Of a DNA stretch of 64,000 bases, positions 33,189-33,714 are shown piece by piece. The DNA is from Clostridia bacterium (GTDB lineage: Bacteria; Bacillota; Clostridia; Oscillospirales; CAG-272). The notes under the pieces are model-generated. The model saw only the letters and a program-made list of their open reading frames with translations. It searched no databases and was not told the DNA's origin. Position numbers and translations under genes: made by a program. The stretch spans positions 19,330 to 83,329 of the forward strand of contig JAFSSQ010000080.1 of NCBI GenBank assembly GCA_017450965.1, written 5' to 3'. Positions within the stretch are counted from its first letter, which is position 1; every line of letters starts with the position of its first letter.

Positions 33189-33473
33189 AATGATGTTTGC
33201 CCTGTCGGGCAAATGATGTGTGCTTCGCACATGATGCTGCCTTCGGCAATGATGCGTCCTGCGGGACATGAGGGCAAACATCTCATCATTGCGAGCGAAT
33301 GCGAACAACATCATTTCGGCGAAGCCGATACATCATTAGGCGCTTTGCGCCGACATCATTATGGGCTATTTTGTTGGTGTATAAGCCATCATTCTCGATC
33401 ATATTGAATCTTCATCAGAAATATCAAATTTACCCCGTTTTCATTCTTGGGCTATTTCGTCTGTTAATCACAG
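33189..33473. repeat. Module A of the heptad + variable mini-hairpin array (AATGATG / CATCATT)
   Basis: Forward heptads are at 33189, 33212, 33230 (CATGATG) and 33248, plus a degenerate ATGAG at 33268. Each is followed by a different short perfect hairpin.

Reverse heptads CATCATT are at 33284, 33309, 33331, 33354 and 33387, each preceded by a hairpin.

The module ends in a conserved box gggctatttcgtctgttaatcacag (33449-33473). Details are in the findings. Confidence 0.85.
33398..33427 (-). promoter_or_regulatory. Candidate sigma-A promoter reading leftwards into module A
   Basis: On the minus strand: TTGATA (33427-33422), 18 nt spacer, TATGAT (33403-33398). The predicted start at about 33391 lies at the first heptad (33393-33387). 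Confidence 0.4.
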
Positions 33474-33502
33474 AAAAAAGCACGCGAAAGCGTGCTTTTT
33501 TC
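33474..33502. terminator. Bidirectional intrinsic terminator T1
   Basis: aaaaaagcacgc-gaaa-gcgtgctttttt. Confidence 0.8.
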
Positions 33503-33714
33503 AACGAAATTTGCTCTTCGGGCAAGTGAAATACGCCTGCGGCGTGTGAAATGTGCATACGCACGTGAAATGTTCGCTAAAGCGAACGTGGGCAAATTTC
33601 ATTTCACATTCGGCGATAAGCCGAATACTTCACACCGAGCGTTAGCGAGATACTTCACATTTTGCCGACAGGCAAAACACTTCACTTTTTGGCTACTCTG
33701 TCTGTTATTCACAG
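33503..33714. repeat. Module B of the heptad + variable mini-hairpin array (GTGAAAT / AYTTCAC)
   Basis: Forward GTGAAAT is at 33526, 33546 and 33565, with an interrupted copy at 33588 and a partial CGAAAT at 33505. Each is followed by a hairpin.

Reverse copies are ATTTCAC at 33601 and ACTTCAC at 33627, 33652 and 33679, each preceded by a hairpin.

The module ends in the conserved box ggctactctgtctgttattcacag (33691-33714). Confidence 0.85.

Follow-up and report, generated by a model that had tools for sequence, protein, structure and literature searches.

What is the element that fills the gap between a transfer RNA (tRNA) gene and a convergent DUF3048 gene in a Clostridia bacterium of the Oscillospirales lineage CAG-272? 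The window considered here, 64,000 nucleotides (nt) of contig JAFSSQ010000080.1 (assembly GCA_017450965.1, positions 19,330 to 83,329), carries at this place two modules, A and B, each built from a constant heptad and variable palindromes that are arranged first as a forward array and then as a mirror-image array. A reading made earlier from the letters alone (the sequence-only reading) described this architecture correctly, recognized no known family in it, and listed several candidate roles. The answer that we favor, with about as much confidence as doubt, is that positions 33153-33778 hold two complete heads and one truncated head of small selfish cassettes that sit at the CCA ends of tRNA and transfer-messenger RNA (tmRNA) genes in gut Clostridia, and that these heads are without their genes. 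In complete relatives, the sequence continues past the last mirror heptad into a promoter and a PF05635 gene (for a four-helix-bundle protein of the 23S ribosomal RNA [rRNA] intervening sequence [IVS] or Avd-like kind) and sometimes into further cargo.

The heptads stand where they had been placed, as a reading against the sequence confirms. In module A, AATGATG or CATGATG occurs at 33189, 33212, 33230, and 33248, followed by ATGAG at 33268, and the mirror heptad CATCATT occurs at 33284, 33309, 33331, 33354, and 33387. In module B, GTGAAAT is found at 33526, 33546, and 33565 and an interrupted copy, GTGggcAAAT, at 33588, while the mirror block has ATTTCAC at 33601 and ACTTCAC at 33627, 33652, and 33679. 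The three terminator-like hairpins with an A-run and a T-run (termed P0; see Table 1) are present, the flanks are recR (PF21176, PF13662), the tRNA gene, and the convergent DUF3048 gene, and the open reading frames (ORFs) across the region were judged spurious. The arrays are noncoding, as had been claimed. Most segments between heptads also fold as the hairpins that had been described; the exceptions are 33291-33308 and 33634-33651, which are not simple hairpins and represent a conserved type with a tandem G.A/A.G mismatch. The arrays are not clustered regularly interspaced short palindromic repeats (CRISPR): these have repeats of 23-50 nt in a single orientation and non-palindromic spacers of similar length, whereas here the repeats are 7 nt long, the spacers are palindromes of 9-27 nt, and there are two opposed blocks.

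Each cluster of heptads exceeds the density in the remainder of the 64-kb window by two to three orders of magnitude (Poisson P from 2e-11 to 6e-10). Modules A and B are homologous: their tails (33440-33492 and 33681-33733) are 79% identical, and the first unit of A (33182-33217) recurs after the third terminator, at 33741-33776, with 92% identity. The region is therefore a tandem repetition of a single kind of element, with two full copies and a small part of a third. A long-range helix (P1) encloses each forward arm, pairing 33192-33203 with 33271-33282 in module A and 33506-33514 with 33592-33600 in module B.

One part of this element has been described before. When Rfam 15 was scanned with cmscan, the forward array of module B proved to be a full-length match to the Gut-1 family (RF01706, model positions 1-77 of 77), with 70.2 bits against a curated gathering score of 50, so a described RNA family is present, which the sequence-only reading had not recognized. 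Gut-1 consists of three or four short hairpins separated by GUGAAAU. Module B shows the three hairpins so separated, and module A has the same layout with AUGAUG. The forward array of A (34.6 bits) and the mirror array of B (22 bits, on the minus strand) stay below the threshold, and the model also matches homologous modules in 11 other loci. No other Rfam family explains the rest of the region at E values up to 10; even with this limit, there are no matches to ROOL, GOLLD, OLE, raiA, and HEARO, the known families that had been named for exclusion.

Gut-1 was described by Weinberg et al. in 2010 as a noncoding RNA (ncRNA), a 77-nt motif from the human gut metagenome only, and was rated by them as a confident RNA (PMC2864571). 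The flanks in their Stockholm alignment contain upstream tRNA ends, terminators, and GUGAUAU...AUAUCAC mirror arrays, about which the paper is silent (PMC2864571). No mention of the motif was found in the later literature searched. The published family differs from the modules in that it lacks the mirror arm, P1, P0, the other heptad classes, the location at tRNA or tmRNA ends, and the linkage to PF05635. Also, the match accounts for about 75 nt of a total of about 560 nt, so a known family explains part of the architecture, but the mirror arm, P1, and the heptad classes fall outside its model. Rfam Gut-1 is the forward arm only of a five-part head. For one arm, then, the idea that nothing of the family had been described is wrong, but it is right for the overall architecture, which is a substantial extension of Gut-1.

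How general is this architecture? A pattern scan with one genome per species gave 120 loci, mostly in metagenome-assembled genomes of Clostridia (Oscillospiraceae, Acutalibacteraceae, and Ruminococcus), with Akkermansia in addition. About 37 clean modules have one layout, about 210 nt long, with five parts: a 5' terminator-like P0, a forward arm, the long-range P1 that competes with a local hairpin (hp1), a mirror arm, and a tail. The end of the upstream gene is followed by P0, by (C)AAC with a partial heptad (F0), by hp1, and by three full heptads, each with a hairpin of 11-13 nt. Then come GTGAG, a copy of the 3' arm of hp1 joined to a partial mirror heptad (R0), and four mirror heptads with hairpins of 17-19 nt between them, and the module ends in a tail, a terminator, or a promoter. 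In related modules, the P0 hairpin abuts the first heptad, and the type of P0 seen in module B also occurs next to other tRNAs (L117, L039, and L096).

P1 pairs F0 and the 5' arm of hp1 with the copied 3' arm and R0, and it was found in 35 of 38 modules with many different sequences. In an alignment of 29 modules, P1 is 98.1% paired and has double (compensatory) changes at 9 of its 11 pairs; its covariation score is 0.70, compared to 0.26 in shuffles (0 of 500 reach the observed value) and at most 0.19 in slid controls. The local hairpin hp1, which is mutually exclusive with P1, is equally well supported. The modules have fold z-scores from -3.9 to -7.4, the latter belonging to the minimum-free-energy fold of the forward arm of module B, in which P1 encloses the hairpins. 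There is no continuous stem; the complementarity of the arms is at the level of the heptads. There are six classes of heptad (GTGAAAT, GTGATAT, GTGATGT, (A)ATGATG(T), ATGAAAT, and TCGATAT), and TCGATAT is the only one that departs from RTGAWRT. In 42 of 43 modules, the majority heptad of one arm is the exact reverse complement of that of the other. Hairpin units recur at differing positions in different modules, and one hairpin of the mirror arm keeps the tandem G.A/A.G mismatch. Kissing of loops between the arms was considered and rejected: taken together, the classes of loop complement each other, but inside a module the single loops fail to match.

Some loci hold more than a single module. 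In an Akkermansia sp. metagenome-assembled genome (L006, 1900-3450), there are three tandem units of about 440 bp, each with a Gut-1 array of four GTGAAAT, then a same-strand array of four (c/g)aacGAGATTG, and about 200 nt of conserved noncoding sequence. In L388/L393, two tRNA-Val genes with CAC and GAC anticodons each have a tandem pair of GTGATGT-class modules behind them. In front of the second module of a pair, P0 is reduced to its 3' half, and a PF05635 gene lies between the tRNA-module blocks. Three conserved blocks of about 60-100 nt are found downstream of the last mirror heptad in otherwise unrelated loci (L032 with L037; L045 with L048 and L049; L056 with L073), for example ...GTAACACnCTAnACCTTGnAGG...GTGTGAAAAGGAGTACGAAC and ...CTGTTGTTnnnGGGTTTGGGCnACnGCCC...; they may be a further RNA or the terminus of an opposite-strand gene.

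The location of the modules is as regular as their layout. About half begin at the base after the CCA of a tRNA, with at least 10 tRNA identities represented and always in the sense orientation; when the cassettes of relatives are counted as well, the number of tRNA identities rises to 15 or more, and tmRNA is added. The stack in the window likewise begins at the base after the CCA of tRNA-Gln, beside the mature RNA and not inside it. The remaining modules follow protein genes, and their P0 is of another type, without a T-run. On the other side of the module, a PF05635 (23S_rRNA_IVP, four-helix-bundle) gene stands 46-54 nt past the last mirror heptad in six loci. By tblastn, PF05635 genes adjoin arrays in 9 of the 120 pattern loci as against 0 of 120 viral loci. 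In L259, an AATGATG arm and a CATCATT arm flank the PF05635 gene, and a search with its protein gave more than 7500 relatives, mostly on very short contigs. This locus was the yield of a metagenome scan for three CATCATT copies, whose hits were otherwise almost all coding or low-complexity noise.

An identical PF05635 protein, P0220, is found in at least five different gene neighborhoods. Its cassette of about 1.3 kb consists of P0, an AATGATG-class head, a promoter that overlaps the last heptad, the PF05635 gene, a class I methyltransferase gene, and a right end, ...CGTCTTACACA. These cassettes directly follow the CCA of tRNA-Thr(CGU), tRNA-Ser(GCU), tRNA-Arg(ACG), tRNA-Tyr(GUA), and tmRNA, and what lies beyond their right end looks like native terminators or, in L378, is an older module, only partial, that belongs to a different heptad class. 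Module A of the window is about 85% identical to the cassette heads in L385, L378, and L382 from F0 to R4, and the homology ends at the promoter. In another locus, L068, a direct repeat of about 45 nt, CCAAATGTAAAAAGCTCCGATGAATATCGGGGCTTTT, at ~650-700 and ~1440-1490 flanks a unit of a tRNA 3' fragment, P0, a module, and a PF05635 gene; the repeat may have arisen when the target terminator was duplicated. Further loci have PF05635 genes beside heptads that lack hairpins, namely strictly 7-nt-periodic inverted blocks of CATNNTT/AATGAAK (L250/L251, 3779-3881) and of AATGWGM/TCTMATT (L035, 975-1095). Such runs suggest that the heptads, and not the hairpins, are the common denominator.

The same tRNA-Gln site behind recR in close relatives carries different content or none, and this is turnover. 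Relatives with 94% RecR identity (L243-245) have one decayed GTGATAT-class module after the tRNA, a relative with 75% (L247) has a forward half-module, and one with 74% (L248) has no module. At the same 74%, L250/251 have the hairpin-less array, in which CATNNTT occurs six times together with AATGAAK, and then a promoter and the PF05635 gene. Conservation at the syntenic locus was thus not found in relatives, which by the standard of the sequence-only reading counts against novelty or function, but the pattern is conserved as a dispersed family at other tRNA loci. In L248 (3700-4130), about 430 nt of GC-rich noncoding sequence, unrelated to the modules, lies between the tRNA terminator and the next gene. 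An origin in phages or plasmids was rejected: of 120 viral pattern hits, one is a true module, and blastn gave no hits in phage or plasmid collections.

One could picture the life of such a cassette as follows. P0 would restore termination for the invaded tRNA, and new cassettes would enter beside the CCA and push older ones outward. With entry on the CCA side, the fragment at 33748 would be the oldest in the window, followed by B and then by A. The two arms may be a cis-acting site that works as DNA or when folded back, with the heptads (RTGAWRT) as putative recognition sites in both orientations. The palindromic spacers could extrude as GNA/GNNA DNA mini-hairpins, and P1 would let the arms fold back. 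The obvious candidate for a partner is the pentameric four-helix-bundle protein that the cassette family itself encodes. Among solved structures, the one nearest to P0220 is 2rld, with five chains, and the approximately five heptad-like positions per arm (F0-F3 plus GTGAG; R0-R4) make a pentamer an attractive candidate. A link between PF05635 clusters and heptad classes is present, but it was not counted as evidence of recognition since common descent would produce it anyway. The boldest form of the proposal, which we consider rather unlikely, is that the Gut-1 arrays are the cis site of a new class of mobile element that homes to the CCA end of tRNA and tmRNA genes without a recognizable recombinase of its own, its roughly 5+5 heptad-like sites being wrapped by pentameric PF05635 (S23p/Avd-like) protein and its spacers extruded as DNA mini-hairpins.

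Of course, a number of observations weigh against the cassette reading. No PF05635 gene was found anywhere in the window by tblastn, and the tails of the window modules do not resemble the right end of the cassette to a significant degree (z 0.7-2.5). The genes called within the cassettes or beside them include no recombinase, transposase, or reverse transcriptase, and no integrase is among those called in at least 20 loci, so mobility is read from the distribution only. Neither a pair of empty and filled sites nor a circular junction was found. The sole exception among the 43 modules with respect to the matching of their arms is module B of the window itself, where ACTTCAC, present in 3 of 4 mirror copies, is not the complement of GTGAAAT. 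Also, in L011, L002, and the Akkermansia locus L006, the second arm is not complementary to the GTGAAAT arm that it accompanies, and arm-to-arm pairing is therefore not universal. The other points concern RNA. Gut-1 has the confident rating by Weinberg et al. (PMC2864571), and several strand-specific features would suit an RNA just as well: the tandem G.A hairpin, the U.G pairs by which the Rfam model lengthens the stems of the forward arm, the choice between P1 and hp1, and an orientation that is constant with respect to the tRNA.

These last points belong to a rival that we hold to be unlikely, namely that Gut-1 is a structured ncRNA on the tRNA-sense strand, made by read-through or processing of the tRNA transcript or as a 3' untranslated region (UTR), and acting in trans. 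P1 would close a cloverleaf-like 5' domain, the mirror arm would be the 3' domain, and the RNA would, for example, titrate a protein through single-stranded heptads or serve as a P1/hp1 switch. The Rfam match, the strong covariation of P1 and hp1, and the fold z-scores all speak for it, and terminators come after those modules whose P0 has no T-run, which is what one expects of a 3' UTR. However, P0 and F0 leave no space between them for a promoter, and P0 is a strong terminator in most tRNA-linked copies. In about 10 loci, the promoter of the next gene has its -35 box directly beside the last mirror heptad or overlapping it, without an intervening terminator. Rapid turnover between close relatives is another point against an RNA that acts in trans.

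The base pairs and loops bear on the same question. Among 919 pairs in the stems, 904 are Watson-Crick, 7 are G.T, and 8 are A.C. There is no excess of wobble pairs on either strand, and an attempt to assign the strand by wobble pairs failed for lack of asymmetry. Loops of the forward arm read C(T..C)G in 41 of 61 cases and those of the mirror arm C(G..A)G in 53 of 84, which means that each arm has GNA/GNNA loops on the strand whose heptad reads ATTTCAC, ATATCAC, or CATCAT. Among these loops, GNA triloops are frequent, as are tetraloops outside the GNRA type (e.g., GTTA); GNA and GTTA loops are typical of DNA. They are the loops of the d(GCGNAGC)/d(GCGNNAGC) mini-hairpins, which melt at ~76.5 C compared to 39 C as RNA (PMC13037366). 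Some units have only 3 bp and a triloop (e.g., tgcttcgca), and several forward hairpins of the window are marginal as RNA (-0.1 and -1.3 kcal/mol). L030:913 has its core turned around with respect to P0 and P1, and there the type of loop tracks the orientation of the heptad and not the position in the module. The lack of wobble excess, the DNA-typical loops, the lack of room for a promoter, and the inversion in L030:913 favor action as DNA or on folding back, and by these sequence features it is more likely that the arrays work at that level than as a classical small RNA. The evidence thus leans toward the DNA-level binding-site array, one of the roles that the sequence-only reading had put forward. 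A small RNA from the minus strand was rejected: a promoter-like TTGATA-18-TATGAT is present at 33427-33398, but chance alone would yield one match of this kind, and in most related loci a promoter on the opposite strand is absent, the promoter there being a forward one that serves the next gene.

A second rival, which we hold to be improbable, is processing of the kind seen with IVSs: on read-through, the arms and P1 would zip into an interrupted stem, and RNase III would separate the tRNA from the cassette RNA. The 23S IVS of Coxiella burnetii, which is also the precedent for the cassette reading that we favor, lies as a selfish element within a stable-RNA gene; it has inverted repeats at its termini, heptamers in tandem, and an ORF for S23p (PF05635), a protein that forms a homopentameric toroid (PMC4990558). 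The cassettes, as we read them, are likewise selfish elements tied to a stable-RNA gene, with inverted repeats at the ends, tandem heptamers near the ORF, and the same protein family. In L259, the arms flank the ORF just as IVS inverted repeats do, and the complementarity of the arms in nearly all modules would suit such a stem. IVSs, however, lie inside helices 25 and 45 of the 23S rRNA and are excised by RNase III, whereas the modules come after the CCA and have their own terminator, and an element outside the mature tRNA needs no excision. Instead of the 28-bp stem of an IVS there are heptad-plus-hairpin arrays, whose 7-bp helices broken by four-way junctions would be an untypical substrate for RNase III, and the window copies are without an ORF. 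When heptads vary within a module, the partner in the nested register mostly shows no matching change (window B, L049, L040, and L034; L111 is the sole exception), and F0 pairs with R0, not with R4. For the same two reasons, a nested ladder of forward-mirror heptad helices was set aside as doubtful. Least probable of all is a host-beneficial insulator, similar to REP/BIME elements, that blocks read-through, antisense transcription, and 3' exonucleases around the tRNA: the location between terminators and promoters or convergent genes, the bidirectional P0, and hairpins that are equally good on both strands would fit, but the heptad classes, the matching of the arms, P1, and the PF05635 linkage are left unexplained, and orthologous sites in relatives do without it.

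The cassette heads can also be compared with other known systems. Like REP/BIME, BOX, and NIME elements, they are dispersed, modular, hairpin-rich, and extragenic, lie by terminators, have units shuffled from copy to copy, and are found in both orientations. In REP/BIME, however, the palindrome is constant and a RAYT transposase is known, whereas here the linker is constant, the palindromes vary, and the arms stand in blocks and do not alternate; the arrays have no palindrome with a GTAG-type head conserved genome-wide. With the attC sites of integrons they have in common promoter-proximal stacking, palindromes that are conserved in structure but variable in sequence, 7-nt core sites, a putative function as folded single-stranded DNA, and nearly pure Watson-Crick stems. 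The differences are that there is no IntI, that the heptads (RTGAWRT) are not GTTRRRY/RYYYAAC cores, that the cassette has its structured site at the 5' end, that docking is at tRNA 3' ends, and that the cassette has its own promoter. The omega repressor of inc18 plasmids recognizes 7-bp WATCACW units, in direct and inverted blocks, as operator and centromere. The heptad ATATCACt fits WATCACW, but omega heptads are contiguous, without hairpin spacers, and no ribbon-helix-helix gene was seen here. Finally, the DNA mini-hairpins of single-stranded DNA origins and phage N4 promoters share the C(GNA)G/C(GNNA)G loops and 3-6-bp stems (tgcttcgca reads tGCGAAGCa on the opposite strand), but the known ones are single hairpins in origins or promoters and not arrays with constant linkers (PMC13037366).

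Table 1. Array elements in the window and the tRNA gene on which they are anchored.
Feature	Position	Strand	Remarks
tRNA gene	33077-33152	+	CCA end is the anchor of the stack; ARAGORN; Rfam tRNA 56 bits; alignment with L242-L251
P0 of module A	33153-33188	.	16-bp terminator-like hairpin, A-run and T-run, directly after CCA
Module A forward arm	33189-33272	+	F0-F3 (A/C)ATGATG; four short T..C-loop hairpins; partial heptad ATGAG at 33268
Gut-1 match in module A, below threshold	33188-33260	+	34.6 bits
Module A P1 5' strand, GATGTTTGCCCT	33192-33203	+	pairs locally with 33205-33211 (hp1) or with 33271-33282; 12/12 complementary
Module A P1 3' strand, AGGGCAAACATC	33271-33282	+	second copy of hp1 3' arm plus partial mirror heptad
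Module A mirror arm	33284-33393	+	five CATCATT, longer hairpins; 33291-33308 carries tandem G.A mismatch
Module A spacer and tail	33394-33472	+	tail motif TTGGGCTATTTCGTCTGTTAATCACA common to module B and locus L111
P0 of module B	33473-33502	.	bidirectional terminator-like hairpin, GAAAAAAGCACGC...GCGTGCTTTTTTC
Module B forward arm	33503-33600	+	F0 cGAAAT, three GTGAAAT, GTGgg at 33588; P1 strands 33506-33514 and 33592-33600
Gut-1 match in module B	33502-33576	+	cmscan RF01706, 70.2 bits
Module B mirror arm	33601-33685	+	ATTTCAC and three ACTTCAC, G..A-loop hairpins; tandem-G.A hairpin 33634-33651
Module B tail, TTTTTGGCTACTCTGTCTGTTATTCACA	33686-33713	+	79% tail identity with module A
Third P0	33714-33747	.	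terminator-like hairpin
Truncated third module	33748-33778	+	F0 and hp1 only, AATGATG class; 92% identical to start of module A
Second array locus	54826-54971	-	after CCA of tRNA-Glu (54972-55046): P0 hairpin plus GCATCGT, GCATCGT, CATCATT with G..A-loop hairpins

The window has an array at a second place, behind tRNA-Glu, with three units of the CATCRTT kind. Its P0 hairpin is similar to that of the P0220 cassettes, the array resembles the P0-proximal arm of L030:913, and Rfam at the gathering threshold gives no match to it. The tRNA that anchors the main stack has the body of a tRNA-Gln with the anticodon ATG (~33109-33111), for which reason it is labeled His by ARAGORN. The ATG anticodon is common to contig L241, while TTG is found in L242, which has an identical RecR, and in all more distant relatives; either it is a U34A variant of tRNA-Gln(UUG) or it is a difference of assembly or sequencing. 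Elsewhere in the window, a bacterial large signal recognition particle (SRP) RNA (30243-30509, 170.8 bits) lies upstream of dnaX. The longest ORF call for dnaX, with a TTG start at 30425, overlaps this RNA, and the true start is therefore probably further downstream.

What does this mean for the family? Since 2010, Gut-1 has been in Rfam as a 77-nt motif known from the gut metagenome only, without an organism, a context, or a function. It now has organisms, the Oscillospirales-type Clostridia and Akkermansia, and it has an architecture, a bipartite inverted array with a covarying long-range helix, along with a rule of location at the CCA end of tRNA and tmRNA and a candidate partner in PF05635. 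The case is also a warning that constraints at the level of DNA or of a selfish element may be the source of the covariation in a family classed as a "structured RNA." If the wrapped-site mobile element were true, it would give a function to Gut-1 and to the stand-alone "IVS proteins," and it would provide a mechanistic link to the 23S rRNA IVSs, possibly by way of a step primed by RNA or by the CCA end. In the interim, Gut-1 and the stand-alone PF05635 proteins, two families whose function is unknown, gain a shared context that can be tested.

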